In this document: positions 11,416-29,674 of the stretch, piece after piece | Layout of the letters: each line of letters opens with the position of its first letter | How positions within the stretch are numbered: position 1 is the first letter of the stretch | From: an uncultured archaeon | GTDB lineage: Archaea > Iainarchaeota > Iainarchaeia > Iainarchaeales > CSSED10-239 | NCBI GenBank assembly: GCA_964468895.1 | Contig: CAYXWT010000004.1 | Coordinates: 1 to 31,478, forward strand | Direction of reading: 5' to 3' | DNA: 31,478 nucleotides | Made by a program: the position numbers and the translations under genes | Notes under the pieces: model-generated | Told to the model about the DNA's origin: nothing | Database searches by the model: none | What the model saw: only the letters and a program-made list of their open reading frames with translations

Positions 11416-11514
11416 ATGATTACCTCTATTTGTTTGTATACATAAAAATTACATTTTCAAAAATAGGCTTAATCTAATTAACAAGTAAATTTATTTTTAA
11501 AAATTGATAATGAC

Positions 11515-11585
11515 AATTAGTATTTAGATTGTTTTTAGTAAGAATTTTATTTTGAATATAATATTTAAGTAAGTATAATGTTTTA
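11515..11585. repeat. about 70-nt dispersed direct repeat, copy 1
   Basis: 'aattagtatttagattgtttttagtaagaattttattttgaatataatatttaagtaagtataatg' aligns by eye with 11824-11895, with a handful of substitutions. Confidence 0.7.
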
Positions 11586-11598
11586 TACCTAACTATAG

Positions 11599-11811
11599 TC
11601 TTTTTATAGAATCTTCAAATCAATAAAGTATTGGGAGCCATTAGGAAATACAATTTTAGAATATATTAATTATATAGAATATAAGTTTGATGGTAGACTA
11701 GGTATTTTAAAACGAAAACATATTGACTGTGAAACTATTAACTATATAGGAAAAGAAGCTAATAATGTTGAACAAGAAATTATAAAAGTAGTTACTATTC
11801 TAAGTTTTTAA
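11599..11811 (+). pseudogene. start-less ORF remnant between the two 70-nt repeats
   Basis: Open frame '..YWEPLGNTILEYINYIEYKFDGRLGILKRKHIDCETINYIGKEANNVEQEIIKVVTILSF*' with no ATG/GTG start. No family recognised. Confidence 0.2.
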
Positions 11812-11823
11812 AATAAAAATTAT

Positions 11824-11895
11824 AATTAGTATTAAGATTGTTTTTAGTATGTATTTTATTTTGAATGTAATATTTAGGTGTGTATGACTTTTTTG
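11824..11895. repeat. about 70-nt dispersed direct repeat, copy 2
   Basis: 'aattagtattaagattgtttttagtatgtattttattttgaatgtaatatttaggtgtgtatgac', see copy 1. Offset is about 309 nt. Confidence 0.7.
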
Positions 11896-11998: not shown

Positions 11999-12059
11999 GT
12001 CAATCTATTGACTGGTTTTATGGTCAAACCGGCTAACGGGTTGCCCGGTCCATATGTTT
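11999..12059 (+). promoter_or_regulatory. GC-enriched structured leader ending in the conserved 11-mer TCCATATGTTT, upstream of ATPase copy 1
   Basis: Palindrome gtcaat-ct-attgac (11999-12012), ggttt/aaacc stem (12014-12030), accgg/ccggt stem (12028-12049) and the 11-mer at 12049-12059. The same 11-mer sits at the same 38-nt distance from the ATG of ATPase copy 2. Confidence 0.4.
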
Positions 12060-13394
12060 AAATATATTTCTATTGCTATATTTCTTATGGATTATACTAA
12101 GATATTAAAAATTTGGAATCCCTGGTGGATTTCAAAGAAAGTAGATTTAAATAAATTTAAAATTGAACGAAATAAAACTAAAGAAATAATTAATTTTTTA
12201 AAAATTAGAGAAATTATAGTTTTAAAAGGTATAAGACGTTCAGGAAAATCAACTATTATTTATCAAATTATAAATTATCTTATAAATCAGAAAAAAATAA
12301 ATCCCAAAAACATCTTTTATTTTAATTTTGATCAACCTTTAAAAAGTAATGAATTAGAAGTTATGGATGATCTTTTAAATAATTATTTAGAAATTAATAA
12401 TCCAAAAGGAAAAATATATGTTTTTTTAGATGAAATTCAAAATGTAGAATTATGGGAAAGGTGGATTAAAAAAGAATATGATTTAAAAGAAAAAAGTATT
12501 AAATTTATTATAACTGGATCTAATAATTCTTTACTTTCAAATAAAATTTCTACTGCTTTAACTGGAAGAATTATTTCTATAAATATATATCCTTTATCTT
12601 TTTTAGAATATTTATTATTTAAGAATTATAAATATAAAGATCTTGATATAGATGAAAATAAAATAAAATTTCATTTTAATAAATTTTTGAAAAAAGGTGG
12701 ATTTCCAGAAGTAGTTTTAGAAAAAGATGATTATATTAATAAGAAAAGATTATTAGAATATTTTGAAAATATTATTTTAAGAGATATAATTACAATTAAA
12801 GATGTAAATGAAACTAAAAAATTAAAAGAACTTGCTCATTATCTAATTACAAATATTTCTTCACAAATAACTTATAGTAAATTAGGAAAAGTATTTGGTC
12901 TTAATAAAGCTACTGTAAAAGAATATGTTTCTTATATTGATCAATCTTTTTTAATTTTTGAGGTTAATTTTTATTCTTATTCTTTAAAAAAAAGTGTAAG
13001 TATACAAAAACCTAAAAAAATATATTGTATTGATAATGGTTTGAGAGAAGCTGTTTCTTTTAAATTTTGGGATGATAATTCAAAACTTATTGAAAATTTA
13101 GTTTTTGTAGATCTTTTAAGAAGAGGATTAGATGTTTATTATTGGTTTTCTAAAAATGAAATTGATTTTGTAGTTTCAAAAAATAATAGACTTATTTTGA
13201 TTAATGTATGTTATTCCAATGAAATTCCTGAAAGAGAAATTAAGGGTTTTAAAGAATTTGAAAAAGAATATAAGAACATAGATCAAAAAATAATAATTAC
13301 TAAAAATTTAGAAAAAGAAGAAGATGGTGTTTATTATATTCCTATATACAAATGGATTTTAAAAGATAATTTGTTATTTTATAAAGAGATTTAG
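12054..13394 (+). CDS. AAA+ ATPase, COG1373/DUF4143 family (AAA_14 plus DUF4143 plus C-terminal nuclease-like domain)
   Basis: Walker A 'GIRRSGKST' and Walker B 'VFLDEIQ'. 'GGFPE', 'RDI' and 'YCIDNG' blocks are shared with 26739-27998. The likely true start is the in-frame ATG at 12087 ('MDYTKILKIWNPWW'). Confidence 0.8.
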   Translation: MFKYISIAIFLMDYTKILKIWNPWWISKKVDLNKFKIERNKTKEIINFLKIREIIVLKGIRRSGKSTIIYQIINYLINQKKINPKNIFYFNFDQPLKSNELEVMDDLLNNYLEINNPKGKIYVFLDEIQNVELWERWIKKEYDLKEKSIKFIITGSNNSLLSNKISTALTGRIISINIYPLSFLEYLLFKNYKYKDLDIDENKIKFHFNKFLKKGGFPEVVLEKDDYINKKRLLEYFENIILRDIITIKDVNETKKLKELAHYLITNISSQITYSKLGKVFGLNKATVKEYVSYIDQSFLIFEVNFYSYSLKKSVSIQKPKKIYCIDNGLREAVSFKFWDDNSKLIENLVFVDLLRRGLDVYYWFSKNEIDFVVSKNNRLILINVCYSNEIPEREIKGFKEFEKEYKNIDQKIIITKNLEKEEDGVYYIPIYKWILKDNLLFYKEI

Positions 13395-13795
13395 CAACAA
13401 CAATAACTGCAGGAGCAAGACTATTTTTAACTATTGCTCAAACAATAGCCAAAAATGAAAAATGTCCTCATCATTATATGGATACAGATAGTATTTTTGT
13501 AGATACAAAAATATCTAGTAAAGTTATTGATTATTTTAAAAATCTAAGTCCTTATTCAAATAATATTCCTTTACTTAAAAAAGATAAAGAAAATGTTTAT
13601 TTTTATGTGATTTGTAGTAAAAGATATTGTCTTTATAGATTAGATAAAAATAAAAGAGATATTATTGATTATAAATTACATGGATTAGGTCATTTAATTA
13701 ATCCTTGGAAAAATAAAATAAAGAATTTGCAAATCCTTTCGTATATTAACAATAATATTATCGTCCATATTAATATTGTGGAGAGTAATTGTTAA
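13385..13795 (+). pseudogene. C-terminal remnant of a family-B DNA polymerase
   Basis: The frame opens at 13385, overlapping the ATPase stop. It reads 'ATTITAGARLFL..(18 aa)..HHYMDTDSIFV', i.e. the ITxxGR block followed by motif C YxDTDS. 'CSKRYCLY' sits at the KKRY/KxY motif position. The exonuclease domain and motifs A and B are missing. Confidence 0.6.
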
Positions 13796-13857: not shown

Positions 13858-13930
13858 AGCCTCTAGTGGGATTTGAACCCACGACCTACAGTTTACAAGA
13901 CTGTTGCTCTAGCCACTGAGCTATAGAGGC
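13858..13930 (-). tRNA. tRNA-Thr (anticodon UGU), 73 nt, no encoded CCA
   Basis: Reverse complement folds as a cloverleaf: acceptor GCCTCTA/TAGAGGC, D-arm GCTC-AGTGGCTA-GAGC, anticodon arm ACAGT-CTTGTAA-ACTGT, variable AGGTC, T-arm GTGGG-TTCAAAT-CCCAC, discriminator T. Confidence 0.92.
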
Positions 13931-13977: not shown

Positions 13978-14007
13978 TAGAGAAAACTTTAAAAATAAAT
14001 CTTTATT
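13978..14007. repeat. 30-nt perfect direct repeat, copy 1 (3' flank of K3)
   Basis: 'tagagaaaactttaaaaataaatctttatt' is identical to 14808-14837. Weaker similarity extends about 15 nt on each side. Confidence 0.85.
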
Positions 14008-14023
14008 TTTTATTTAATTTTAA

Positions 14024-14746
14024 TTAAGAAATATACCAAGGATCAATAATGTATATTTCTTTTGTTTTAGTATTATAAAGTAAGTTGTGAGGAAATAAAT
14101 CTTGTATATTTGTTGGACCAGTAACATTAGTATTTTTAGATTTTATATATTCTTGATTATTTAAACCTTTATCTATTATTGATTCTATTATTTCTCTTTT
14201 TCTTGAAATGCTAATACTTTCTTTTAGAGTTAGTTTGTTATTATCTGCTAATTCTTTAATTGTTTGAAGATTAGTAAAATCATATACTATATATGCTTTT
14301 TTTGATTTAATATTTAAATATGATAGATGAGCATCAATAATATTAATTCCTAAACTTTTTAGTATTTTTATGGCTTTCATTTCATAAAAACCATTTAAAT
14401 GAGCTTTAAGTTTGTTATCAAAAGTAGAACATTTACTATTAGGTGTTGGTTCTTCATTTATTTCTTTTACAAAATATTTTTTATTATTTTTATTAATTTT
14501 AATTATATACATTTCATTAGTGCTTGTTTTGATCTTATTACTTACTTTTTCTATTGTAAATCTACCTTTTGGGTCTTTATATTTGGGAAGTTTTTTTTTA
14601 TTCATTTCACGAAAAGCTTTAAGTAAACCTTTATTTTCTGAAAGTATTTTTCGTCCTTTTGGAGAGTAAGCTAGTTTATGATTTTCTGTTTCTAGGAACT
14701 TTGATTTTGTAATACTATATCTTTTCATATTTATATCTAAATACAA
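14024..14746 (-). CDS. family B paralog K3: atypical protein-kinase-like fold protein with the most canonical catalytic motifs
   Basis: 'KKYFVKEI' (VAIK-like Lys), 'YEMKAIKILKSLGINI' (alphaC-like), 'AYIVYDFTNLQTI' (hinge), 'DLFPHNLLY' (DxxxxN, about 14084-14101) and 'IYIIDPW' (metal-binding Asp, about 14042-14044). This arrangement resembles RIO/Bud32/APH/Kdo-kinase-type atypical kinases. Confidence 0.5.
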   Translation of the reverse strand: MYLDINMKRYSITKSKFLETENHKLAYSPKGRKILSENKGLLKAFREMNKKKLPKYKDPKGRFTIEKVSNKIKTSTNEMYIIKINKNNKKYFVKEINEEPTPNSKCSTFDNKLKAHLNGFYEMKAIKILKSLGINIIDAHLSYLNIKSKKAYIVYDFTNLQTIKELADNNKLTLKESISISRKREIIESIIDKGLNNQEYIKSKNTNVTGPTNIQDLFPHNLLYNTKTKEIYIIDPWYIS

Positions 14747-14807: not shown

Positions 14808-14837
14808 TAGAGAAAACTTTAAAAATAAATCTTTATT
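14808..14837. repeat. 30-nt perfect direct repeat, copy 2 (5' flank of K3)
   Basis: Identical to 13978-14007. Confidence 0.85.
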
Positions 14838-14967
14838 ATTTATTTTATTAATTGTGCCATAAAATTATAAATACTTAGAAAATCAAAATATTTAAAAAAG
14901 TAATTAGATATAATATACTTTGTTATATTTATGAATTAATAAAATAAATTTCTAATTTGTTTTTTAT

Positions 14968-15744
14968 ATGTTAATAAGAAAAAAAAATTTAAAAAAATTT
15001 GGGCAGAAAAGAGAAGTCAATGAATCTGTAAATTATATTTTAAGTAGTAAAAAAAAAGGATTTGAAAGTTGGGCTTATAAAGGAGATAGATATAGATATA
15101 AAGTTGTTTTTGAATTACAACTTAAAAAGAAGCCACTTAAATATTTGCTTGATAATAATATAAAAAACCCTGAAATTATGATGTTAGGGCCATCAACTGG
15201 AGAATATATTCTAGAATTTAAAAAAAGACTTTTAGAAAATAAAATTAAACCAATAATTGATTGCTTTTCTTTAAAAAATGAATTAAATAAAAATGTAGAA
15301 AAGGAAGTTAGATTAAATCTATTTGGTAAAGGAGCTTTTGAAAAATTAAATACAAAAGCAAATAATCTTGATTTAAAAGAAATTCAAAGAAATCTTATAG
15401 ATAAATATAATTTAATTATAGCACCAATGAGTATAGGTGTTCATACAAAGTATCCTATAAATGCTTTATTTACTTCTGCATTAATGCTTAGAAAAGGTGG
15501 TAAAGCATATGTTGAAATTCCTGCAATAGATAGAGATTATTTAGAGTATATGAAATCGCAAAAACAGTCACGAAGTAAATATGATAAACAGTTATTTTAT
15601 TCAAAATTACAAGCAACTAAAGTAGAAAAAATTTTTGATAGGTTTGTTAATTCTTATAACCCTAAATTAAAATTTAAATTAGAAGCTGTTGATACTTTTT
15701 ATCATGAAAAATATGTGTTTATAGAAATTACTAGAATACAATAA
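14968..15744 (+). CDS. family A paralog P1: Rossmann/SAM-methyltransferase-like protein
   Basis: 'LKKFGQKRE', 'FESWAYKGDRYRYK', 'IMMLGPSTGE', 'PIIDCFSL', 'YNLIIAPMSIGVHTKYPINALFTSALMLRKGGKAYVEI', 'NPKLKFKL' and terminal 'FIEITRIQ'. Confidence 0.55.
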   Translation: MLIRKKNLKKFGQKREVNESVNYILSSKKKGFESWAYKGDRYRYKVVFELQLKKKPLKYLLDNNIKNPEIMMLGPSTGEYILEFKKRLLENKIKPIIDCFSLKNELNKNVEKEVRLNLFGKGAFEKLNTKANNLDLKEIQRNLIDKYNLIIAPMSIGVHTKYPINALFTSALMLRKGGKAYVEIPAIDRDYLEYMKSQKQSRSKYDKQLFYSKLQATKVEKIFDRFVNSYNPKLKFKLEAVDTFYHEKYVFIEITRIQ

Positions 15745-15767
15745 ATTTAATTTTTTAATTATTTCAT

Positions 15768-16532
15768 TTGAGATTTATGCCTGTTACTAAAAAAATTGGA
15801 AAAAAAAGAACTGCAATTAAAAATTGTAATATTGTAAAAGCAAGTTCTAAAGAATCTTGGCCTTGTAATGGACAAATGGAAAGATTTAAAGAGATATTTT
15901 TTGTAAATTTATATAAAAAACCTTTAAATTTTTTACTAAAACTAAAAAAGCAGAATCCAAATGTTATGTTCCTTGGTTCTGGAAGAGGAGGAACTATTTC
16001 TGAATTTCTAAAATATACTTCTAAATTTAAAATAAAGCCATTAGTAGATACTTTTTCTTTAACTAAAAATCTATCTAAAAGTGTTTTGTCAAAAGTTAGA
16101 AAAGATTATTCAGCAAATATAGGTTTTGAAGAACTAAATACAAAAAACAGTAAATATAAGTTTTTAGAAAATAAATATGATCTTATAGTAGGTGCTATGA
16201 GTGTGGGATATCATACAAAGTATCCAGCAAATGCACTTTTTACTTCTGCGCTAATGTTAAAAAAAGGTGGAAAGGCATATATTGAAATAGATGATTTAAA
16301 ACAATTTTTACAATTAAATAAAACTCAATTTTTTAAGTTTCTTAAAAATTCTAATATTAATAAAGAAGAAAAATATTCTCAAAAACAGATTTTATTTTTA
16401 GAGAATGTATTTAATAGAATGGTAAATTCTTATGATTCTAAACTAGAATTTTCTTTTAACTTTATTAAATATAAAAATAAAATGTTTTCTAGTGTTGATT
16501 CTGTATTTGTAGAAATAGAAAGAATTAAATAA
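15768..16532 (+). CDS. family A paralog P2
   Basis: 'VMFLGSGRGGT', 'VDTFSLTK', 'YDLIVGAMSVGYHTKYPANALFTSALMLKKGGKAYIEI' and terminal 'FVEIERIK'. The probable start is ATG 15777 ('MPVTKK'); the ORF track uses TTG 15768. Confidence 0.55.
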   Translation: MRFMPVTKKIGKKRTAIKNCNIVKASSKESWPCNGQMERFKEIFFVNLYKKPLNFLLKLKKQNPNVMFLGSGRGGTISEFLKYTSKFKIKPLVDTFSLTKNLSKSVLSKVRKDYSANIGFEELNTKNSKYKFLENKYDLIVGAMSVGYHTKYPANALFTSALMLKKGGKAYIEIDDLKQFLQLNKTQFFKFLKNSNINKEEKYSQKQILFLENVFNRMVNSYDSKLEFSFNFIKYKNKMFSSVDSVFVEIERIK

Positions 16533-16551
16533 AGTCTGATTAATAATAAAT

Positions 16552-17301
16552 TTGATTATTATGCCTATTTTAAGAAATAAAAAAGTTATAACTAAATCAA
16601 TTTTAAAAAAATTTGGTAAAAAAAGAGAACCTTTTGATTATGTGTCTAAACAAATTATTGATAAGAATGAGGTGTGGGGACATAATGGATCCAAAAATAG
16701 ATTTAAATCTATATTTCTTAAAAACTTAGAGAGAAAACCAATTTCTTTTTTACAAAAACTTGGAAAAGAAAAGCCAACAGTTATGTTTTTAGGACCTGGT
16801 AAAGGTGGTACAATAACTGAATTTCTAAAATATACTTCTAAATTAAAAATAAATCCTGTTGTAGATGTTTTTGCTTTAACTAAAAATTTGTCTTTAGAAG
16901 CAAGTTCTAAAATTAGAACAGATTATTCTTCAGATGTTCCTTTTGAACATTTAAATATTAAAAATAGTAAATATAAATTTTTGGAATAAAAATATGATCT
17001 TGTAATTAGTGCTATGGGTGTTGGGGCACACACAAAATATACCTCTAATGCTCTTTTTACTTCGGCTTTAATGTTACAAAAAGGTGGTAAGGCTTATATT
17101 CAAACAAATATGTGGAATTATCTAGTAAAAAATTCATATGATGCTAAAAAAACAAAATTACTTATTAAAAGTGTATTTAATAGATTGGTTGTTTCTTATA
17201 ATAAAATCTTAGAAAAATCTAATCTTAACAAAAGAAAATATTCTTTTAATTTTATTGAAAGTAATAATTTAGGATTTGTTGAAATAGAAAGAATTAAATA
17301 A
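16552..17301 (+). pseudogene. family A paralog P3, interrupted by an in-frame TAA (16987-16989)
   Basis: ORFs 16552-16989 and 17014-17301 share one frame. Read through, they give '..KYKFLE*KYDLVISAMGVGAHTKY..', where paralogs have 'FLENKYDL'. The C-terminal third is shorter and more divergent but still ends 'FVEIERIK'. Confidence 0.7.
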
Positions 17302-17317
17302 ATTTAAGAATTTAATA

Positions 17318-18103
17318 GTGATGATTATTATGCCTGTTTTGAAAAAATTTGGAAAAAAAAGAGAAACTAACTTAAAAGTTAAAGAGTGGCTTAGTATAGG
17401 TTGTGAAAAATGGCGTTGTAATGGACTAAAGGAAAGATATAAACAGATTTCTGAAGCACTTGGTGGTATTCATGTTTATTTTTTAGTTTGTCGTCGAAAA
17501 TCACATCCTATTGTGATGTTTTTAGGTGCTGGAGTAGGAGAAACTATTTCTGAATTTAAAAAACATCTTTTGAAACATAAGATACATCCAACTGTAGATG
17601 TTTTTTCTTTAACTAAAGATTTATCTTCAGAGGTTAATTCTAAAACAAGACGTGATTATTCTAATAATTTGCCTTTTGAACATTTAAATATGAAAAATAG
17701 TGCTTTTAAAAATTTAGAAAATAAATATGATTTAGTTATAGGGGCCATGAGTGTTGGTGTACACACTAAATATCCTGCAAACTCTTTGTTTACTTCTGCT
17801 TTAATGCTTCAAAAAGGTGGTAGGGCATATATTGAAGTTGTAGACTTTTTAAAAAAGAATGGTGGTATATCTACTATAAAAGAACATAAAAAACTTTTAG
17901 AAAGAAATAAATCTTTTAGTTTTAGTAAGTATGAACGTTATAGTCTTTCATATATGAAACAAATTTTGGTTTTTAAAAAGGTTTTTTTAAGAATGATTGA
18001 AGTATATAATCCTAAATTAGAATTCTCTATTAAAATGATTGATAATAATTTGAATCATTTTACTTGTCAAATGAATTTTATAGAAGTAGAAAGAATTAAA
18101 TAA
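17318..18103 (+). CDS. family A paralog P4
   Basis: 'LKKFGKKRE', 'VMFLGAGVGET', 'VDVFSLTK', 'YDLVIGAMSVGVHTKYPANSLFTSALMLQKGGRAYIEV', 'NPKLEFSI' and 'FIEVERIK'. The probable start is ATG 17330 ('MPVLKKFG'). Confidence 0.55.
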   Translation: MMIIMPVLKKFGKKRETNLKVKEWLSIGCEKWRCNGLKERYKQISEALGGIHVYFLVCRRKSHPIVMFLGAGVGETISEFKKHLLKHKIHPTVDVFSLTKDLSSEVNSKTRRDYSNNLPFEHLNMKNSAFKNLENKYDLVIGAMSVGVHTKYPANSLFTSALMLQKGGRAYIEVVDFLKKNGGISTIKEHKKLLERNKSFSFSKYERYSLSYMKQILVFKKVFLRMIEVYNPKLEFSIKMIDNNLNHFTCQMNFIEVERIK

Positions 18104-18126
18104 TTTTTAATATATAATAGATACTG

Positions 18127-18915
18127 ATGTTTATGTCTCTTTTAAGAAATAAAAAAGTTTTGCTAAAACCAATTTTAAAAAAATTTGGTAAATTAAGAAA
18201 ACCATCTTTATCATTAGAGGAATATTTAGTTTCTAAAGCTAAGGAATCTTGGGGTTATAATGGAACTAAAGATAGATTTAAAACTATATTTTTTGAACAT
18301 TTACAAAAAAAACCTTTTCGTTTTTTAATTAAATTAAGAAAAGAAAAACCAAACGTTATGTTTTTAGGTGCTGGTAAAGGAGAAGCTTTATATCAATTTA
18401 TAAAATTTAGTTCTAAATTGAAATTAAATCCAATAGTAGATGTTTTTTCCTTTACTAAAAGCTTAACTAAAGATGTAAAATCTTTAGTTAATAAAGATTA
18501 TTCTTCTAGAACTCTTTTTGAACATTTAAATGTAAAGAAAAGTAAATTTAAGTTTTTAGAAAATAGATATGATCTTGTTGTAGGTGCTATGAGTGTTGGT
18601 GAACACACATATTATCCAGCAAATGCTATTTTTACATCTTCTTTAATGTTGTTAAAAAATGGAAAGGCTTATATTGAGGTTGAAGATTTAAGAGATCGTT
18701 TTACTGTTAAAGAGTATGATGCATATATATCGTATTTAAAAAAATTTCCTAAACAACATCATGATGAATTATATTATCAAAAACAAATAGATAATTTAAA
18801 AATTATATTTAAGAGAATGGTTTATTCTTATAATCCAAAATTAGAATTTTCTTTTAAAATCATTAAAAATCCCAAAACTGCTATTAATTTTGTAGAAATA
18901 GAAAGAATTAAATAA
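18127..18915 (+). CDS. family A paralog P5
   Basis: 'ILKKFGKLRK', 'ESWGYNGTKDRFK', 'VMFLGAGKGE', 'VDVFSFTK', 'YDLVVGAMSVGEHTYYPANAIFTSSLMLLKNGKAYIEV', 'NPKLEFSF' and 'FVEIERIK'. Confidence 0.55.
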   Translation: MFMSLLRNKKVLLKPILKKFGKLRKPSLSLEEYLVSKAKESWGYNGTKDRFKTIFFEHLQKKPFRFLIKLRKEKPNVMFLGAGKGEALYQFIKFSSKLKLNPIVDVFSFTKSLTKDVKSLVNKDYSSRTLFEHLNVKKSKFKFLENRYDLVVGAMSVGEHTYYPANAIFTSSLMLLKNGKAYIEVEDLRDRFTVKEYDAYISYLKKFPKQHHDELYYQKQIDNLKIIFKRMVYSYNPKLEFSFKIIKNPKTAINFVEIERIK

Positions 18916-18936
18916 AAAAACAAAATAAAATTTATT

Positions 18937-20004
18937 TTATTTCTTTAATTCTATGGTTTGAGTAGGGAAAGCAAATTCAATTTTTTCTTTTTCAAAACGA
19001 GTTTTTATTTCTGTGTTTATTTTGTCTTTTATTTGTATGTATTTTCCCCAATTTAATTCGTTTATATAATATGTGACTTTTACATCTAATGAATAACTAT
19101 TAAATTCATCAAATCTTATATAAAAATCAGGAAGTATGTTTTTATTGTTTTTAAGTATTTCTTTAACTATTGCTTTTGCTTTGTTTAATTTAGCTGTACT
19201 TGTGCTATATGTTAAACCAAGAGTTGTATCTATTCTTTTTGAAGATCTATACGATATGTTCGAAATAGTACTACCTGCAATTTTACTATTTGGCATAATC
19301 ATTAAAGTACCATTTGTTTTTTGTATTTGGGCAGATCTTAATCCTACTGCTTTAACAGTTCCTACTTCTCCATTAATTTCTACAAAATCTCCTATATTAA
19401 AGTTTTTTTCTCCAAATAATACTACACCGCTTATTAAATTTTCTAGTGCATCTTTAGCTGCAAGAGCTACTGCAATACCACCTATTCCAAGTCCTGCTAG
19501 TAATGCTCCTACATCATAACCAAAATTAGATAATACTAATACACCTGCAAAAGCTACAATTACTATGTTTGTTAAAGTTTTTAATAATGGAACTAATTGA
19601 TCATCATATTTTGTTTTTGTTTTCTTTGCTATTTTTGTAATATATTCATCTATTATTCCTAATATGAATTTTGCTAAAAACCAAGCTATACAAAATACAT
19701 ATAATAAAAATACAATTTTGGTAATTATGTTTTGAAAACTTGATGATACTGTTAAATATCTAAAACCAATTTCAAAAAATATTATTGTTATTATTAACAT
19801 AAATGGAAGTGGTTTTTCCATAATACTAACTAATATATCATCAAACTTTGTTTTTGTTTTTTCTGCAATTTTTTTAAATACGTTTTTACTAAAATAGGAT
19901 GCTATTTTGCTAACTATTATTCCTATAAATATAAATAATATAAACATTAAAATTTGTTTTAAAGTATTTCCGAAAATCATAATTTCTAACATAATTAATC
20001 TCAC
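18937..20004 (-). CDS. MscS-family small-conductance mechanosensitive channel
   Basis: N-terminal TM helices, pore-helix region 'LAGLGIGGIAVALAAKDALENLISG', and the beta-domain 'GDFVEINGEVGTVKAVGLRSAQIQKTNGTLMIMPNSKI'. Confidence 0.85.
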   Translation of the reverse strand: MRLIMLEIMIFGNTLKQILMFILFIFIGIIVSKIASYFSKNVFKKIAEKTKTKFDDILVSIMEKPLPFMLIITIIFFEIGFRYLTVSSSFQNIITKIVFLLYVFCIAWFLAKFILGIIDEYITKIAKKTKTKYDDQLVPLLKTLTNIVIVAFAGVLVLSNFGYDVGALLAGLGIGGIAVALAAKDALENLISGVVLFGEKNFNIGDFVEINGEVGTVKAVGLRSAQIQKTNGTLMIMPNSKIAGSTISNISYRSSKRIDTTLGLTYSTSTAKLNKAKAIVKEILKNNKNILPDFYIRFDEFNSYSLDVKVTYYINELNWGKYIQIKDKINTEIKTRFEKEKIEFAFPTQTIELKK

Positions 20005-20217
20005 TTTATTAATTTTTTAAAATGTAGTTATAGATATGTTTTATATCTATAGATTATTTATAATAAACTATTTATAAATGTTTTTGTAACTATATAAATA
20101 ACTAGTATATAATATTTGTAATAATATCTTATTTTGTAGTCTACTTTCAAAGATATATTCTTCTATTTAAAATAAAATTGATTCTATAAATATAAATATT
20201 TTTTAATTTGATAAATT

Positions 20218-20937
20218 ATGATTAAAAAAAAATTAAAAGTCAAATCTAAAGTTACAAAATCTACTGTTGTAGAATTGAAAGATGTTACTAAGACTTATCT
20301 TATGGGTGAAGTTGCAGTTCATGCTTTAAATGGTGTTAATTTAAAGATAAAACAAGGTGATTTTGTATCTATTATGGGTCCAAGTGGATCTGGAAAATCT
20401 ACTATGATGCATATTGTTGGTGCTTTAGATTTACCAAGTACTGGTCAAACTTTTATTAAAGGAATAGATTTGAGTACTTTAAGTGAAAATGAACTTTCTC
20501 AAATAAGAGGAAAAACAATTGGTTTTGTTTTTCAAGAATTTAATTTAATTCCTACTCTTACTGCTCTAGAAAATGTAAGATTACCTATTTTGTTTCAAGA
20601 TATAGAAGAAGATAGAACTGATTGTTGTATTGATTTATTAAAATTAGTAGGTCTAGGTGATAGAGTTGATCATAAACCTAGTGAACTTAGTGGTGGGCAA
20701 CAACAAAGGGTTGCTATTGCAAGAGCTTTGGCTAATGATCCTGAAATAATTCTTGCTGATGAACCTACTGGTGCACTTGATTCTAAATCTGGTATTGAAA
20801 TACTTGATTTACTTGAAGATTTAAATAGAAAAGGTAAAACTGTTATTATTATTACTCATGATAAATCTTTAACTAAATATACTAAAAGAAATATTTCTTT
20901 AAAAGATGGTAAAGTTATTAAAGATATTTCAAAATAA
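20218..20937 (+). CDS. ABC transporter ATP-binding protein (MacB/LolD-type)
   Basis: Walker A 'GPSGSGKST', Q-loop 'FVFQEFNL', signature 'LSGGQQQRVAIARAL', Walker B 'IILADEPTGALD' and H-loop 'ITHD'. Confidence 0.92.
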   Translation: MIKKKLKVKSKVTKSTVVELKDVTKTYLMGEVAVHALNGVNLKIKQGDFVSIMGPSGSGKSTMMHIVGALDLPSTGQTFIKGIDLSTLSENELSQIRGKTIGFVFQEFNLIPTLTALENVRLPILFQDIEEDRTDCCIDLLKLVGLGDRVDHKPSELSGGQQQRVAIARALANDPEIILADEPTGALDSKSGIEILDLLEDLNRKGKTVIIITHDKSLTKYTKRNISLKDGKVIKDISK

Positions 20938-20955
20938 AAAGTTTGTAAGATATTT

Positions 20956-22149
20956 ATGAAAGGAATGTTATCTTTTATTTTTAAAAATATAAAACGAAGA
21001 AAACTTCGAAGCTGGCTTACAATTATTGGTATAATTGTAGGTGTTTTTGCAATAGTTTCGCTAATGTCTTTATCTCAAAGTTTAGAAAATAAAATAAGTT
21101 CTAAATTTGATCAATTAGGTGCAAGAAAAATAGAAATTGTTTCTAAATATAGTTCTTATGGAACTAGTTCTTCAAGCCAAGCACTTAGTGAAGATGATAT
21201 TGCTGTTCTTGAAAAAATTCCAGATCTTGAAAAAGTAATTGGTTCTATTAAAAGTAGTGTTTCTATTGAATATAATAGAATAAATAAACATCTTACTTTA
21301 ACTGGTTATGATTGTGATAATATTGAAGATATGTTTTATCAAGAAAATTTAGAAATATTAAAAGGAAAACAAATAGTTTCTGAAAAATCTAAAGAAATTG
21401 TTATAGGTTATGGTTTTTATGGTGATTATGATAATGTTTTTGGTAAAAAACTAGATGTTGGAGATTCTTTAGAAATTAATAGTCATTCTTATAAAATTGT
21501 TGGTATTTTAGAAGATACTGGTGGACAAGGTAATTTTAATATTTATATTTCTATGACTAATATTAGAGATATAACTGGTGCAGAAGATAAAGTTGTTGAT
21601 AAAATATATGCAATTGTTAAAGAAAATAAAGTTCTTGAAGAAGTTTCTGAAAGAATACAAAATAAACTAGAAAGTTTTAGAGATTCTGATGATTTTAGTA
21701 TTACAACTCCTCAAAAGACTGCAGAAAAAAGAAAAGAAACTTTAAAAGTAGTTTCAATAGTAGTAATTGGAATTGCTGCAATTTCTTTATTAGTTGGTGG
21801 TATTGGAATTCTTAATTCTATGTATACTTCAGTAGTTGAAAGAAAAAAAGAAATTGGAGTTATGAAAGCAATTGGTGCTAAAAGAAGTGATATTTTAAAA
21901 CTTTTTTTATTAGAATCTGGTATTATTGGTTTTGTAGGTGGTCTAATAGGCTCTATTGTTGGTTTTGTAGTTGCATTTTTAGTTAGTTTTGTTGCAACAT
22001 TATTACAATTTGAAATTGTTTTTTCTTTAAGTTTTGATATTTTGTTAATAGCACTTGGTTTTTCATTTGTTGTTGGAATTATATCTGGCTTTTGGCCAGC
22101 TTATAAAGCTTCAAAACAAGAACCAGTTGAATGTTTAAGAGAAGAATAA
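20956..22149 (+). CDS. ABC transporter permease, FtsX/MacB-type (MacB_PCD plus FtsX domains)
   Basis: N-terminal TM 'LRSWLTIIGIIVGVFAIVSL', a large extracytoplasmic domain, and a C-terminal FtsX block 'GGIGILNSMYTSVVERKKEIGVMKAIGAKRSDI'. Confidence 0.85.
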   Translation: MKGMLSFIFKNIKRRKLRSWLTIIGIIVGVFAIVSLMSLSQSLENKISSKFDQLGARKIEIVSKYSSYGTSSSSQALSEDDIAVLEKIPDLEKVIGSIKSSVSIEYNRINKHLTLTGYDCDNIEDMFYQENLEILKGKQIVSEKSKEIVIGYGFYGDYDNVFGKKLDVGDSLEINSHSYKIVGILEDTGGQGNFNIYISMTNIRDITGAEDKVVDKIYAIVKENKVLEEVSERIQNKLESFRDSDDFSITTPQKTAEKRKETLKVVSIVVIGIAAISLLVGGIGILNSMYTSVVERKKEIGVMKAIGAKRSDILKLFLLESGIIGFVGGLIGSIVGFVVAFLVSFVATLLQFEIVFSLSFDILLIALGFSFVVGIISGFWPAYKASKQEPVECLREE

Positions 22150-22253
22150 AGTTACATTTTATAAATAAAATGTTCTTTATATTTGTTGTATAATATATTT
22201 AAAATAAATTATAAAAATTAAAATAAAATTTAGTATTTAGAGGTGGAATTAAA

Positions 22254-23525
22254 ATGAATATAAAAAATTTAAAAACAATATTTAGTATAGTACTAATATT
22301 AGGATTATTTGCATTTTCTGGTCTTGTTAATGCTCAACAAGATTATGATGTGATAAATTTAGATGCTAGTAATTATAATTATGATCCAGCGCCAATTACT
22401 CCTGGTGATGAGTTTGAATTGTGGATACAATTAACAAATAATAGTAATAATGCTGCTGAAAATATAGATTTTCTTTTAGAATTAGAATATCCTTTTAGTT
22501 TAGCAGATTATGATGAATTAAATGGAAATATAAGTTATATTGCACCATATCAAACTAAAATTTTAAAATATAATTTAAAATCTGATTTTTTAGTAAATTC
22601 AGATACTTACACTATTAAATTTAAATATAAAAGAAGTGGAGTAGATGTATATAATGTTGAAGAATATAATATAGATATTACTTCTCAAAATGCAATTATA
22701 GATATTATATCTTCAGATATAGAAAAAGTAGATATTGGAAAGTCTTCTAATATAAATTTAAATTTAAAAAATTTAAGTTTACAAAATGCAAAAGATGTTT
22801 TTGTAACTTTAAATAACTCTAGTGATGATAAAATAAAAGTTTTAAATTTAACTACTAAATACATTGCAAAACTAAATGCTGGACAAGAAATTAATTTGCA
22901 ATATAGTGTTTTAGCAGATAGAACTATTGAAAATAAATCTTACTCTCTTCCTATTACTATTTCATATTCAGATAGCCAAGGAGATTATAATATTTCTAGA
23001 ACAGTAGGTTTAGAGATTATTGGAAATCCAGAAGTTTTACTTAATATTATAAGTATAGGAGAGAATTATAAATTATATACTAATGATGTTCAAGAAATTG
23101 AATTTGAAATCTATAATGTTGGAAATATTGATGCTGAATCTGTTTATGTTGAAGCAAATGGTGATTTTTTAGTAGCTTCAAGTAAATATTTTGTAGGTTC
23201 TATTGAAAAAGATAATTATGATAGTGTAGATTTAGAATTAAATATAAAAGATATGCCCTCTGGAACTTATAATTTAGAAGTTATAATAAATTATAAGGAC
23301 GGAGATTTAATTGAACAAAAAATAACTCAAAATATACCAATAGAAGTTGTTAATAAATCTAAAGGTGGAAATACCTTAGTAAGTGTTGTAAGTACTATTG
23401 GATATATTATTGCAGTAATATTTGGTTTGTCTTTGATAATTATTATTATAAGATGGTTACTAAAAATACTTGTATTTCCAGCTTTTGGAATATCTAGTAT
23501 TTCAAAAAACAAAAAAAAGAAATAA
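22254..23525 (+). CDS. secreted, C-terminally anchored surface protein with repeated beta-sandwich-like (CARDB/COG1361-like) modules
   Basis: Strong GAGGTGG RBS. Signal-like N-terminus 'IFSIVLILGLFAFSGLVNAQ', repeated '..N.GN..A..V.V..' style segments, a C-terminal hydrophobic helix and a poly-Lys tail. The domain call is tentative. Confidence 0.4.
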   Translation: MNIKNLKTIFSIVLILGLFAFSGLVNAQQDYDVINLDASNYNYDPAPITPGDEFELWIQLTNNSNNAAENIDFLLELEYPFSLADYDELNGNISYIAPYQTKILKYNLKSDFLVNSDTYTIKFKYKRSGVDVYNVEEYNIDITSQNAIIDIISSDIEKVDIGKSSNINLNLKNLSLQNAKDVFVTLNNSSDDKIKVLNLTTKYIAKLNAGQEINLQYSVLADRTIENKSYSLPITISYSDSQGDYNISRTVGLEIIGNPEVLLNIISIGENYKLYTNDVQEIEFEIYNVGNIDAESVYVEANGDFLVASSKYFVGSIEKDNYDSVDLELNIKDMPSGTYNLEVIINYKDGDLIEQKITQNIPIEVVNKSKGGNTLVSVVSTIGYIIAVIFGLSLIIIIIRWLLKILVFPAFGISSISKNKKKK

Positions 23526-23591
23526 ATTATTTATTTTTCTTTTTTTTAAAAACATAATTTTTTTAGTTAGAACTTTTAAAAAGATATTTTT

Positions 23592-24818
23592 ATGCATAAA
23601 TTAAAATTTACTAATTTGGTAAATCTTACTATAAAAAATATATTTAGAAGAAAAGTAAGATCTACTCTTACTATTCTTTCTGTAATTATAGGTATTGCAG
23701 CAGTAATTTCTTTGATATTATTAAGTGATGGTTTATTTAATGCTATTGAAGGGCAGTTTGATGTTTTAGGTTCAAATACTATATTTGTATTTCCTGTACA
23801 TTTTCAACAAGGTAATCCTGTAGAAATAGTTTCAAGATTATCTGTTGAAGATAAATTAACTTTAAAAGATGTTGAAGCTCTTAGAAAAATAAAAAATGTA
23901 AAAGAGGTATATTCTTTTACATATAAAACTAGTGAGTTTGAATATAAATATGAAACACAATATGCTTTAACTGTTGTTGCTCCTGCTGATGAATGTGATG
24001 GTTTATTTGAAATTATGCAATTAGATTTTTCTTCTGGAGAAGGATTTAATGGAAAAACTGGTAAGAAAGTTATAATTGGATCATATTTTGCAAATGATCT
24101 TTTTGATCATAAAATTAGTGTTGGTAATAATGTAAAATTAAATAATATTGATTTTAAAGTAATTGGAATACTTGAACCTGTTGGTAATGTAGATGATGAT
24201 AGTACTGTTTATATTACAAAAGAAACTGCAGATAAAGTACTTGTTTTGGACTCAGAAGTTACTCAAATAATTGCCAAATCTGCTGGTGATGCTGATGTTA
24301 GTGATGTTAAAGATGATATAGTTGATAGACTTGAAAAAACACATAGTGAAGATGCATTTATGGTATATACTTCTCTTCAAATGTTAGAAATGATTCAACA
24401 GATTTTAATGGTTCTTAAAATTATTTTGATATCTATTGCTTTAATTTCTCTAGTAGTTGGTTCTATTGGAGTTATGAATTCTATATTTACTTCAGTTTTA
24501 GAAAGAATTGGAGAGATTGGTATTTTAAAATCCATTGGTGCTAAGATATATGATATTGTATTTTTATTTGTTTTAGAGTCTGTAATTTTATCTATTATTG
24601 GAGGATTAATTGGTTTGGTTTTAGGTATTGGTATAGCTAAATTAGTTGAACTTTATATTATTAGTTTGAATTTTGATATGTTACATATTATAGTTAATGC
24701 TAATATTATTATTCTGGCAATTTTTATATCTATATTGGTTGGTTTTATAGCTGGTATATTACCTGCAATTAGCGCTGCAAGATTAAAACCTGTAGATGCA
24801 CTTAGAAAAAATATTTAA
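23592..24818 (+). CDS. second FtsX/MacB-type ABC permease
   Basis: Same architecture as 20956-22149: 'VRSTLTILSVIIGIAAVISL', then 'GSIGVMNSIFTSVLERIGEIGILKSIGAKIYDI', ending '..RLKPVDALR'. Confidence 0.85.
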   Translation: MHKLKFTNLVNLTIKNIFRRKVRSTLTILSVIIGIAAVISLILLSDGLFNAIEGQFDVLGSNTIFVFPVHFQQGNPVEIVSRLSVEDKLTLKDVEALRKIKNVKEVYSFTYKTSEFEYKYETQYALTVVAPADECDGLFEIMQLDFSSGEGFNGKTGKKVIIGSYFANDLFDHKISVGNNVKLNNIDFKVIGILEPVGNVDDDSTVYITKETADKVLVLDSEVTQIIAKSAGDADVSDVKDDIVDRLEKTHSEDAFMVYTSLQMLEMIQQILMVLKIILISIALISLVVGSIGVMNSIFTSVLERIGEIGILKSIGAKIYDIVFLFVLESVILSIIGGLIGLVLGIGIAKLVELYIISLNFDMLHIIVNANIIILAIFISILVGFIAGILPAISAARLKPVDALRKNI

Positions 24819-24880
24819 AAAAATAAACACTAAACTGTAAAAAAACAAAAATAAAATTAGTAAAAGAAGATGTATAATAT

Positions 24881-28043: not shown

Positions 28044-28080
28044 TGCACAAATTTTGTTTATTTGTGCACTTGAAGTGCAC
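28044..28080. repeat. two overlapping perfect palindromes at the truncation point of ATPase copy 3
   Basis: tgcacaaat (28044-28052) pairs with atttgtgca (28060-28068). gtgcactt (28064-28071) pairs with aagtgcac (28073-28080). Confidence 0.7.
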
Positions 28081-28399
28081 AATTGGTAGGTTATATGAAA
28101 ACGTAGTTTTTATACAACTTTTAAGAAGAGGTAAAAAAGTTTATTTTTTTAAGGATAAACTTAATTATGAAATAGATTTTATAACTTTAGAGAAAAATAA
28201 AGTTTCTTCTTTAATACAAGTATGTTATGATTTAGATATTGTAAAGACTAAAGAAAGGGAAATAAGGGGTTTATTATCAGGATTAAATGAATTTAAACTA
28301 AAAGAAGGAGTAATGATAACTCGAGATTTAGAAAAAGAAGAAAAAATAGATAATAAATTAATTAGATTTATTCCTTTATGGAAATGGTTGTTGGAATAA
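28064..28399 (+). pseudogene. 5'-truncated DUF4143 ATPase (C-terminal nuclease-like domain only)
   Basis: 'YENVVFIQLLRRGKKVYFF..EIDFI...IQVCYDL..KEREIRGL...IPLWKWLLE' aligns with the last ~105 aa of 26739-27998 and 12054-13394. No Walker motifs are present, and the GTG start lies inside a palindrome. Confidence 0.65.
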
Positions 28400-29562: not shown

Positions 29563-29674
29563 AATAAAAATATATTTTTTACTTCTACTTTAACTACTGT
29601 TAGAATTTTGCTGAACAAATAATTTTATTTTGTTAACTTAAGATAAATAATTTATAAATTTAATTTTTATTTTA

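Follow-up and report, generated by a model that had tools for sequence, protein, structure and literature searches.

What are the six related genes of this locus, five of which stand in a row, and on what would their products act? The window (the whole 31,478-nucleotide stretch of DNA that was analysed) contains the following copies; the starts were chosen from orthologs.

14968-15744, + strand: c1, 258 aa, the array's first gene; orthologs L001a and P0013; motif I is GPSTG
15777-16532, + strand: c2, 251 aa; start at ATG 15777 fixed by orthologs P0003 and L019c
16561-17301, + strand: c3, 246 codons with one in-frame TAA
17330-18103, + strand: c4, 257 aa, identical to P0005
18133-18915, + strand: c5, 260 aa, identical to P0001; the copy used for the AlphaFold model
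8124-8867, - strand: c6, 247 aa, a distant paralog in a separate clade with P0028

The best reading of sequence and structure model is that the six genes encode class I (Rossmann-fold) SAM-dependent methyltransferases of predicted activity, which make up a rare family without a name. The family is new within a known superfamily. It is very likely that the genes are an active methyltransferase panel made by tandem duplication.

A sequence-only reading had described five head-to-tail paralogs at 14968-18915 and a sixth at 8124-8867. The ORFs, positions, strand and paralogy of the five hold, except that c3 is not intact; the sixth is a paralog with about 30% identity, but its location on the minus strand had been overlooked. 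All of the motif strings quoted in that reading occur in the copies, and the TT that precedes ATG CCT or ATG TCT is seen at the starts of c2-c5. The spacers from c1 to c5 are 32, 28, 28 and 29 nt. The recent clade c2-c5 has pairwise amino acid identities of 50-56%, while c1, which is 37-44% identical to these four, belongs to an older subfamily; for c6 the value is 30-31%. The family profile matches each copy with E 1e-67 to 1e-73, far beyond chance.

The TAA in c3 (16987-16989), which had also been overlooked, splits the gene into ORFs of 145 and 95 aa. A single G>T substitution separates it from intact orthologs (P0004/L017b, P0014/L019b), the codon being GAA in the closest ortholog, L019b, and GCA in L017b. 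All other family-conserved residues of c3 are retained. Either the gene acquired this nonsense mutation recently or the base was called wrongly. The array itself is not an assembly artefact. Its copies have a DNA identity of 57-71% and share no exact run longer than 28 nt, which makes it implausible that an assembler collapsed or expanded them. The order c3 (3' end)-c4-c5-MscS occurs at 99.9% in the independent assemblies L008 and L009, and similar arrays are present in the relatives L001, L017, L018 and L019. The expansion noted in the earlier reading is real and lineage-specific, and the genome that carries it is very AT-rich, densely coded and of DPANN type.

Neither the array copies nor c6 exceed any threshold in Pfam, NCBIfam or PADLOC, in agreement with the claim that the family has no name. 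Methyltransf_23 (PF13489) matches window copies below threshold, best in c2 (E 1.2e-4 and 22.2 bits, below the gathering score of 27 bits), and has no match to c5 or c6; 14 of 79 relatives match it (best E 7e-8). Profile matches in the PDB are the methyltransferase MM_2633 (3dtn, E 0.0034) and a spermidine synthase (E 1e-4). The AlphaFold model of c5 has a pLDDT of 80.9 with a 10-sequence alignment and 93.0 (pTM 0.89) with a 79-sequence alignment. Both models alternate strands and helices and end in a beta hairpin. The top Foldseek matches in the PDB are class I SAM methyltransferases only, led by NovO (E 1.5e-9) and followed by CouO, Rv2258c, Coq5, UbiG, phosphatidylethanolamine (PE) and phosphoethanolamine N-methyltransferases and CmoM, with 475 matches at E<=1e-3; the viral library leaves this picture unchanged. 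The best matches have a TM of ~0.5, 6-8 A rmsd and 10-14% identity, so the cap lacks a solved counterpart and homology does not reveal the acceptor.

Among the 79 relatives the glycine loop is nearly fixed (G79 and G83 100%, G81 81%), as are the acidic positions (D/E103 94%, E/D130 100%). Other conserved positions are Y146 (87%), D147 (82%), T/S159 (99%), L173 (99%), G177 (100%) and R258 (97%). The departures are Ser at G81 and Asn at D147 in c1, and Y-S in place of H158-T159 in c6. Contacts of D103 and E130 with SAM are predicted from motif position, and the strand-2 acidic residue falls at different places in two profile alignments. The class I assignment made from the letters is borne out by the fold and by three sequence features, namely motif I, the acidic residues and the LxxGG strand.

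The group of NovO/CouO C-methyltransferases (5mgz, 5m58), Coq5 (4obw), UbiG (5dpm, 4kdr) and Rv2258c (5f8e) shares the Rossmann-type core. These enzymes resemble the family in size (230-260 aa) and in a lid formed by the helices that come ahead of strand 1 together with an insertion that follows strand 5. They are the best Foldseek matches (E 1e-9 to 1e-7, probability 1.0), but with only 10-14% identity, a TM of about 0.4-0.5 and 6-9 A rmsd. For the near-invariant residues that are specific to the family (W40, G44, E130, T159 and R258) and for its F[VI]EIERIK strand at the C-terminus, no counterpart has been described. The sequence-level kinship found is limited to the Methyltransf_23 clan of generic class I domains and to 3dtn from Methanosarcina mazei. 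In 3dtn, motif I is in register, as are the motifs of strands 4 and 5, whereas the Methyltransf_23 model leaves out the family's N-terminal W..G module and the cap. The best PDB sequence match of the 79-member profile (positions 69-205) is Plasmodium falciparum spermidine synthase (2hte/2pss/4uoe), which shares the register between the glycine loop and the '...T-LF...L-G' that follows strand 4. However, the aminopropyltransferase GGGDG Asp that selects decarboxylated SAM is absent (the equivalent residue, 82, can be K, T, R, V or I), and A-M-S-V-G takes the place of the catalytic DSSDP.

Halophile glycine/sarcosine and sarcosine/dimethylglycine methyltransferases (GSMT/SDMT) are adjacent paralogs that act stepwise. 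Together with the phosphoethanolamine (PMT) and PE N-methyltransferases (3uj7, 8ys9), they are class I enzymes of similar size and a precedent for neighbouring paralogs whose substrates are small amines of related kinds or the head groups of lipids, with osmotic or membrane links. The fold search also matched structures of PMT and PE-NMT. These enzymes have no family-level sequence match to the array family, which has between 1 and 5 copies depending on the lineage and so does not match a pathway with a fixed set of three steps.

Ortholog dN/dS is 0.22-0.40, compared with 0.14-0.26 for MscS and 0.19 for RelA_SpoT. The intact copies are under purifying selection of an ordinary kind, not diversifying selection. 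Between copies, the Rossmann core (residues 141-180) has an identity of 66-80%, against 18-32% for the cap (residues 181-220), which holds most of the indels. The copy set turns over between strains, which have 2 to at least 4 copies in varying order: c1-c2 in L001, c4type-c3type in L017, c4type-c2type in L018 and P0007type-c3type-c2type-c4type in L019. The core-cap contrast and this variation fit the earlier suggestion of a panel whose members have diversified in substrate. The family is small, with 123 clusters in a set of 1.84 billion representatives, and archaeal at every locus examined, two of these loci being from DPANN MAGs.

The surroundings of the genes include a conserved block that had been overlooked.

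7059-7895, - strand: Zn_dep_PLPC-like gene, following c6 on the same strand
13858-13930, - strand: tRNA-Thr(UGU), divergent neighbour of the family gene, kept in L001, L010, L015 and L025
14024-14746, - strand: famB gene, of a kinase-like orphan family
14808-14849, + strand: conserved BRE/TATA-like element (AGAAAAC TTTAAAAATA), upstream of c1, candidate promoter
18937-20004, - strand: MscS-type mechanosensitive channel, convergent with c5, which ends 21 nt away
20218-24818, + strand: MacB-type ABC system
20218-20937, + strand: MacB-type ATPase
20956-22149, + strand: FtsX/MacB_PCD permease
22254-23525, + strand: CARDB surface protein
23592-24818, + strand: second FtsX permease
24881-25522, + strand: conventional class I methyltransferase (Methyltransf_11/25/31)
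25632-26603, + strand: acidic surface protein, found in L035 too

The family gene keeps to one block (tRNA-Thr, MscS, MacB-type ABC/FtsX/CARDB, methyltransferase, surface protein) while its position shifts. It adjoins MscS in the window, L001 and L017 and the second FtsX gene in L010, L015 and L025; it lies within the ABC operon, 3 nt past the first FtsX gene, in L011, L027 and L028, and after the surface protein in L035. The conventional methyltransferase and the acidic surface protein accompany the block in L010 and L015. Block proteins share only 44-70% identity across these lineages. The block is absent around the family gene in L003, L012, L024, L030, L031 and L033, and it may partly be inherited synteny of related DPANN genomes. 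In the window, famB is a ~830-bp insertion between tRNA-Thr and c1, flanked by a 42-nt direct repeat and absent in L001.

The BRE/TATA-like element is proposed as the array promoter. A second copy at 13978-14019 is 95% identical. The 16-mer of the element occurs unchanged in the two window copies and in L001, where it lies between tRNA-Thr and the family gene, and has 1-2 mismatches in L010 and L015. T-runs are present in the c1-c2 and c4-c5 spacers and could terminate archaeal transcription, a point against co-transcription of the array.

A small, non-polymeric acceptor tied to the adjacent envelope/osmotic module is a tentative choice, with somewhat less than an even chance. The closest structural neighbours, cap-bearing small-molecule and lipid methyltransferases, support a small-molecule or lipid acceptor, as does the phospholipase-C-like gene that c6 adjoins.

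The main rival on the acceptor, unlikely but to be taken seriously, is that the copies methylate RNA, most likely tRNA, held by a basic, disordered N-terminal tail and the cap, with paralogs differing in tRNA or position. Translation and tRNA genes recur beside single-copy relatives, which favours an RNA acceptor: RNase-Z-like MBL, PheRS and MetRS in L031; NFACT-R and Pelota in L024; RtcB, S10 and EF1A in L033; tRNA-Phe and LysRS in L012; and a class I aaRS in L035. However, small archaeal genomes are rich in translation genes, and adjacency to them therefore counts for little as evidence. It is also because of such housekeeping neighbours in other archaea that the earlier phrase "rather than housekeeping" is not established. 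The divergent tRNA-Thr(UGU) lies 100-200 nt upstream in L001, L010, L015 and L025, and likewise in the window apart from the famB insertion. In L026 the tRNA gene is that of another isoacceptor, tRNA-Thr(CGU), and stands 100 nt downstream of the family gene, with DAC and TruD after it. These adjacencies come mostly from a single synteny block, and a roughly estimated p of ~0.05 applies to a second tRNA-Thr adjacency among ~8 contexts. The window copies have a net charge of +22 to +28 (+5 to +9 in the first 25 residues), but this is largely compositional: many neighbours have a pI of 9.3-10, and homologs at 55% GC are neutral or acidic (pI 6.2 and 7.8). The fold matches include TrmR and CmoM with tRNA. 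CmoM (8joz, 4htf), a tRNA carboxymethoxyuridine methyltransferase, is a cap-bearing class I enzyme of 250 aa (Foldseek E ~1e-6) and acts on tRNA, and the array family recurrently adjoins tRNA genes. However, CmoM is 12% identical, ranks under the small-molecule enzymes and belongs to a bacterial pathway, and none of its substrate-binding residues was identified as conserved in the family. The copies have no RNA-binding add-on domain, small-molecule enzymes are the top structural neighbours, and five to six paralogs of one RNA methyltransferase in strain-variable number would be unusual for a reduced genome.

It is quite improbable that the copies methylate proteins (at Lys, Arg or the N-terminus), with products of the neighbouring envelope or transporter genes as their targets. 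The PRMT5 Pfam matches (3 of 79 relatives, best E 3e-4) and a CheR match (E 0.034) are marginal, and although one family member is operonic with FtsX and CARDB genes (L011), the copies have no SET, PRMT or PrmA signature and no substrate-docking domain, and small-molecule enzymes dominate the fold neighbours.

A defence or counter-defence locus, or mobile-element cargo such as DNA-modification enzymes or effectors, is more improbable still. The region is plastic, array content varies by strain, the famB insertion is cassette-like, candidate defence genes are close by (AAA_14/DUF4143, that is PDC-S01, and a SoFic-like Fic protein) and a possible polymerase remnant lies beside the tRNA. However, no copy has a PADLOC match, a signal peptide, DNA-methyltransferase motif IV ((D/N/S)PP(Y/F)) or a target-recognition domain, and IMG/VR and GenBank phages contain no relatives of the family. 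The earlier suggestion of defence or effector functions is therefore not supported. Purifying selection also speaks against it, the array is on the tRNA's 5' side whereas integration is usually on the other, and c1-type orthologs keep the same site despite the divergence of the flanking block.

Least probable of all is that the copies are duplicates in decay or without catalytic function (pseudoenzymes), or that the array is an assembly artefact: despite the c3 nonsense codon, a dN/dS of 0.82 between c4 and its nearest relative, a frameshifted c3/c4 hybrid in L007 and short-read contigs that often end within the array, c1, c2, c4, c5 and c6 are full length and keep most near-invariant residues (the deviants being those of c1 and c6 given above), and ortholog dN/dS is near that of neighbour genes.

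The preferred explanation as a whole, a co-transcribed SAM methyltransferase panel with diversified acceptors that are probably small or envelope-linked, has about an even chance of being right. The ancestor would have been a single gene between tRNA-Thr and the envelope block (MscS, MacB-type ABC/FtsX/CARDB), and its tandem duplication would have given the five copies of this lineage, presumably read as one operon from the single BRE/TATA promoter upstream of c1, with c3 only just knocked out. SAM would be held by the conserved core, with the glycine loop LG[PA]GxG after strand 1, the strand-2 Asp/Glu at the ribose and the invariant Glu after strand 3 at the adenine. The methyl group would pass to an acceptor, possibly a lipid head group, an amine osmolyte or an exported compound, under a helical cap made of the N-terminal helices and the insertion between strands 5 and 6. 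Since the core is kept while the cap and the first ~40 residues are divergent, the copies would form a panel with different acceptor specificities.

The window has a G+C content of about 21% and is densely coding. It carries a tandem array of five family genes (c1 to c5) and a distant paralog (c6), whose starts were fixed from orthologs.

Family copies in the window
14968-15744, plus strand: c1, 258 aa
15777-16532, plus strand: c2, 251 aa
16561-17301, plus strand: c3, 246 codons with an in-frame TAA
17330-18103, plus strand: c4, 257 aa
18133-18915, plus strand: c5, 260 aa
8124-8867, minus strand: c6, the sixth copy

The gaps between the array genes are 32, 28, 28 and 29 nt, and the starts of c2 to c5 read TT followed by ATG CCT or ATG TCT. 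Amino acid identity is 50-56% among c2 to c5, 37-44% between c1 and these four, and 30-31% for c6. The family profile matches each copy with an E value of 1e-67 to 1e-73. The sequence-only reading had described five same-strand genes and a sixth copy with a shared set of motifs; every one of these motif strings is present, and the stop codon in c3 has to be added to the description.

The gene c3 contains one in-frame TAA (16987-16989). Outside of this stop there is no frameshift and all conserved residues are kept. The nearest c3 ortholog (L019b, the second family gene at a locus on another contig; 89% aa identity) has GAA at the stop position and L017b has GCA; therefore, the stop was created by a single G>T change. 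The TAA may be a real recent knockout, a population variant or a base-call error, which are inseparable because the base is covered by this contig alone. The array itself is not an assembly artefact, which the sequence-only reading had named among its refuting conditions, since the copies share low DNA identity (57-71%, with a longest common exact run of 28 nt) and two independent assemblies (L008 and L009) agree, both containing the 3' end of c3, c4, c5 and MscS at 99.9% identity. No gene-conversion tracts were detected between the copies.

The family is rare. A word-indexed search of 5.8 billion proteins gave nine clusters, which lack Pfam domains and are named "hypothetical protein" at most. 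When 1.84 billion representatives were searched exhaustively with the profile, there were 123 clusters at E<=1e-3, of which 56 were at E<=1e-30. A pattern-limited scan, with a narrow alignment that reaches close relatives only and under-samples breadth, matched two of 185,579 species-representative genomes: a Candidatus Iainarchaeum MAG (sample CSSed10) and an unclassified archaeon MAG. Iainarchaeota belong to the DPANN kingdom Nanobdellati. All recovered contexts are archaeal, with PCNA, L35Ae, EF1A, Pelota, RtcB and TrmB alongside. Their G+C content is mostly 21-32%; an archaeon with 55% carries one divergent clade. A viral origin was rejected, as IMG/VR and the GenBank phages contain no relatives. 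Neither the family nor the gene block next to it was described in anything that the literature searches found.

The family belongs to none of the curated families that were tested. With Pfam PF13489 (Methyltransf_23, gathering cut-off 27 bits), c2 scored 22.2 bits (E 1.2e-4), c1 14.1 and c4 13.8, and the Pfam scan of c5 and c6 gave no Methyltransf_23 match and nothing relevant. The model is matched by 14 of 79 relatives (E<0.01; best 7e-8), scattered members of which also match other methyltransferase models. The family resembles Methyltransf_23 but falls below its curated threshold for membership. Scanned with NCBIfam, neither the five intact copies nor two distant relatives had a meaningful match (E<=1). 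Assignment to a well-characterised housekeeping family, which the sequence-only reading had named as grounds for abandoning its proposal, did not result from either Pfam or NCBIfam.

The AlphaFold model of c5 has a pLDDT of 80.9 with 10 sequences and of 93.0 (pTM 0.89) with 79, and the secondary structure is identical in both. Three helices at the N-terminus are followed by five strand-helix units, an insertion of three helices (186-233) and a hairpin at the end. Its strands are at 74-78, 101-105, 121-122, 146-151, 173-184, 239-245 and 251-258, with helices between them; the predicted core is thus an alternating beta/alpha core of seven strands with an antiparallel beta6-beta7 end hairpin. The top Foldseek matches in the PDB are class I SAM-dependent methyltransferases only, with probability 1.0 to hundreds of them and 475 matches at E<=1e-3. 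NovO is the best (E 1.5e-9), followed by CouO, Rv2258c, Coq5, UbiG, BamL, PE/phosphoethanolamine N-methyltransferases and CmoM, all of them distant (10-14% identity, TM about 0.4-0.5, rmsd 6-9 A). A search of a viral structure library had the same methyltransferase outcome. The model suggests a core common to known class I methyltransferases and a cap without a solved counterpart.

The cofactor motifs point the same way. A ten-member profile matched the putative methyltransferase MM_2633 (3dtn) in the PDB with an E value of 0.0034, and motif I and the motifs of strands 4 and 5 were aligned in register. Motif I reads V-M-F-L-G-[AP]-G-x-G and directly follows strand 1. In family numbering, all 79 relatives have G79 and G83 of this loop and 81% have G81, a position occupied by Ser in c1. 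Acidic residues are found roughly where expected (Asp/Glu103 in 94% of the relatives, Glu/Asp130 in 100%), and by their position D103 may contact the ribose hydroxyls and E130 the adenine N6 of SAM; the strand-2 acidic position is placed differently by the 3dtn and spermidine synthase profile alignments. Among the same 79 relatives, other conserved core residues are Tyr146 (87%), Asp147 (82%), Leu173 (99%) and Gly177 (100%), and family-specific ones are Trp40 (92%), Gly44 (97%), Thr/Ser159 (99%) and Arg258 (97%). By its predicted fold the family would belong to the class I SAM-methyltransferase superfamily, and reading it as a methyltransferase family is well supported. The methyltransferase-like structure first proposed from motif order was right on fold, Foldseek matches and motif conservation.

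Two narrower identities were rejected. Spermidine synthase is a PDB match of the 79-member profile (E 1e-4), but the GGGDG Asp and the D-S-[ST]-D-P catalytic motif of the spermidine/spermine synthases (aminopropyltransferases) are missing. The GGGDG loop Asp of aminopropyltransferases excludes the SAM carboxylate; the six copies have K, T, R, K, V and I at position 82 and read [GA][AP]MS[VI]G after strand 4. A DNA/RNA amino-methyltransferase of the restriction-modification type (N6-A, N4-C) was rejected because no copy has the (D/N/S)-P-P-(Y/F/W) motif IV, the corresponding region being SVGxHTKYP. When the 79-member profile was compared by hhalign with the window methyltransferase at 24881-25522, the motifs were in register and the match was not significant (E 0.048, probability 1%).

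In a neighbour-joining tree without support values, c2 to c5 and the L019a type form one recent clade with c2-type, c3-type and c4-type orthogroups and c5 alone. The copy c1 is part of an older branch, whose sister group contains the single-copy genes of L010, L015 and L003, and c6 falls in a third, distant clade. Copy content and order vary among related strains and species.

Array order at other loci (P0007 is a protein cluster of relatives)
L001: c1-c2, then MscS
L017: c4 type-c3 type, then MscS
L018 and L023: c4 type-c2 type
L019: P0007 type-c3 type-c2 type-c4 type

In the most divergent clade of the family there is also an abutting pair of genes (256 and 251 aa, 1-nt gap), at L012 7229-8756 (ENA ERZ27247989, the 55% G+C archaeon), flanked by tRNA-Phe/PurM and class I LysRS/PCNA; therefore, the family has been duplicated in tandem more than once. 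Another locus (L007 1-745, JGI 3300039187) has a hybrid gene with a frameshift upstream of c5. Its 5' part is 89% identical to c3 of the window (16651-17103), and from position 130 on the locus is 98% identical to window 17513-25515, starting inside c4. Either unequal crossing-over produced the hybrid as a recombinant allele, or it is a chimera that the assembly made at a conserved stretch.

The copies are maintained by purifying selection, since the dN/dS of orthologs (Nei-Gojobori) is 0.22-0.40. MscS and the RelA_SpoT-like gene, compared between the same genomes, have values of 0.14-0.26 and 0.19, respectively; a c4 comparison gave 0.82, with doubtful orthology. The copies evolve about as fast as the neighbouring genes or faster, and between the window and L017 c3 is 82% identical and MscS 95%. 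Between paralogs, identity is 66-80% in the core (141-180), 18-32% in the cap (181-220), where most indels fall, and about 30% in the first 40 residues. With a conserved core and a divergent cap, the idea of a diversified panel is plausible.

The array starts next to a tRNA gene and an inserted gene of a second orphan family, famB.

Features upstream of the array and famB copies
13858-13930, minus strand: tRNA-Thr(UGU)
13978-14019 and 14808-14849: 42-nt direct repeat with a promoter-like element, 95% identical
1602-2405, plus strand: famB
2448-3251, plus strand: famB
14024-14746, minus strand: famB (234-267 aa over all copies, including L018 1-1191 and L023 2-997)

The same tRNA-Thr(UGU) is divergent and 100-200 nt upstream of the family gene in L001, L010, L015 and L025. 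The spacer contains the conserved element AGAAAAC-TTTAAAAATA, exact in L001 and with 1-2 mismatches in L010 and L015, which we take to be an archaeal BRE and TATA box facing the family gene. In L010 it lies about 30 nt before the start codon. Bacterial promoter and terminator models are uninformative for an archaeon. A TGA[TG] motif 7-10 nt before the internal starts is a partial match to the archaeal Shine-Dalgarno core. The five genes are probably one transcription unit, given the single conserved promoter, the 28-32-nt spacers and the TGA[TG] motif. In the window the two repeat copies flank an insertion of about 830 bp bearing famB, and L001 has one repeat copy and no famB; famB therefore looks like a cassette-like insertion into the tRNA-Thr/c1 spacer that duplicated the promoter-like element. 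The left repeat copy now faces the famB antisense strand. In L018 and L023 two famB copies lie beside, and divergent to, an array of methyltransferase genes; the window has one copy so placed. This lineage-restricted paralog family has no match in Pfam and six clusters only among 5.8 billion proteins, one named Ser/Thr kinase by JGI; kinase-like signals are faint (KSR pseudokinase E~0.4; PADLOC PD-T4-6 E 1e-3).

Other features of the window
3910-4467 (minus), 6167-7021 (minus), 7059-7895 (minus) and 9340-9936 (plus): small enzymes around c6, namely a PEMT/ICMT-type membrane methyltransferase, a SpoU RNA methylase, a Zn-dependent phospholipase-C-like protein and a RelA_SpoT-like protein
11496-11584 and 11805-11893: 89-nt direct repeat, 81% identical, 309 nt apart
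12054-13394, 26739-27998 and 28064-28399: AAA_14/DUF4143 ATPases, two full and one C-terminal fragment
13391-13795, plus strand: short ORF whose frame extends upstream of its ATG
28606-29562: Fic-domain protein
29563-31478: window end, about 1.9 kb without an ORF >=60 aa

The short RelA_SpoT-like protein is barely over its cut-off (29.6 bits). The 89-nt repeat is within an ORF-free spacer of 640 nt that separates an unknown gene (307 aa) from an AAA_14 ATPase. That ATPase (12054-13394, the one scanned) matches the PADLOC candidate system PDC-S01 (E 2e-106) and the Fic-domain protein matches SoFic and PDC-S04; therefore, candidate defence genes flank the region. The short ORF contains ...ITAGAR...YMDTDSIFV...SKRYCLY, a string that resembles the C-terminal palm motifs of a family B DNA polymerase, possibly a protein-primed one; neither the Pfam nor the PDB sequence search supported a polymerase. 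Truncated and beside the 3' end of tRNA-Thr, it could be the remnant of an integrated element. The window is tightly packed except at its end, where no Rfam family reached the gathering score.

Downstream of c5 the order is convergent MscS, ABC ATPase, FtsX/MacB permease, CARDB surface protein and second FtsX permease, then a conventional methyltransferase and an acidic surface protein. Other lineages also have these genes around the family gene, joined at different junctions.

Position of the family gene relative to the block
Window, L001 and L017: beside MscS
L010, L015 and L025: convergent with the second FtsX permease (FtsX2)
L011, L027 and L028: within the ABC operon, 3 nt after the first FtsX permease (FtsX1)
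L035: after the surface protein

Other neighbourhoods of relatives (single-copy except at L012)
L003: conventional methyltransferase, HD hydrolase
L024: NFACT-R, Pelota, CDC48
L026: tRNA-Thr(CGU), DAC, TruD
L030: ATP-grasp protein, AMMECR1
L031: RNase-Z-like MBL, PheRS, MetRS
L033: RtcB, S10, EF1A
L012: tRNA-Phe, PurM, LysRS, PCNA

Identity between the lineages that have the block is 44-70% for its proteins and 31-45% for the family genes. Proximity that outlasts rearrangement is moderate evidence for a functional link; this proximity is not universal. Proteins of 318-320 aa adjoining family genes in L003, L015 and L035 were considered as a common partner and rejected, as they are not one family; the L035 member is the o323-type surface protein of the block.

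It is very probable that the genes would encode active SAM-dependent methyltransferases and that one ancestral gene at the tRNA-Thr/envelope-block site became a panel by tandem duplication. In the members of this panel the cofactor core would be retained and the acceptor-binding cap would vary. More tentatively, and with somewhat less than even confidence, the acceptor would be a small, non-polymeric molecule tied to the adjoining envelope or osmotic genes. Three observations favor such an acceptor: cap-bearing methyltransferases of small molecules and lipids have the nearest folds, the family gene stays with MscS and the MacB-type system, and a phospholipase-C-like gene is directly downstream of c6.

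The main rival is an RNA acceptor, probably tRNA, which seems unlikely. In its favor are two independent tRNA-Thr adjacencies and many neighbours in translation and tRNA processing. Against it, one synteny block holds most of the tRNA adjacencies, the copy number varies and there is no RNA-binding domain. The N-terminus is basic and disordered; however, charge was rejected as a sign of RNA binding since it is compositional, most proteins of this AT-rich genome being basic and the GC-rich homologs not (pI 6.2 and 7.8). Protein methylation is a minor alternative, as is a defence or mobile-cargo role; the suggestion of defence or effector functions found no support, as none of the five intact copies matched a PADLOC-DB v2 defence family at E<=0.01. 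A further minor alternative is that the copies are pseudoenzymes or the array an assembly artefact; the purifying selection and the agreement of independent assemblies count against it.

A further reading is rather improbable: the array may be a strain-variable "tailoring" locus of a DPANN symbiont, whose methyltransferase panel remodels envelope molecules. Substrates would be, for example, lipids scavenged from the host or a product that the MacB-type ABC/CARDB system transports, and gene birth, death and reshuffling at the array site would tune the cell surface or host interface. In a weaker version tRNA-Thr and related tRNAs would be the substrates; this would be a rare instance in which a tRNA gene is linked with the enzymes for its own modification.

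The family is new and narrowly distributed within a very well known enzyme superfamily, and its organisation, a strain-variable tandem array at a conserved envelope-associated address, is unusual. It is a tractable target, with no curated model and about 123 clusters, because of its confident predicted structure, clear invariant residues and reproducible genomic address by MscS, the MacB-type transporter and surface proteins. An ordinary acceptor would limit the value to the addition of a new family to the methyltransferase superfamily. Knowing the acceptor class would annotate the whole family and could reveal in what way these organisms modify lipids, osmolytes or RNAs that they are unable to make. 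Since DPANN archaea have tiny genomes and are host-dependent, a family that is expanded and not lost points to what is important in their way of life, and the interest would be greater if the acceptor is a host-derived lipid or other interface molecule.
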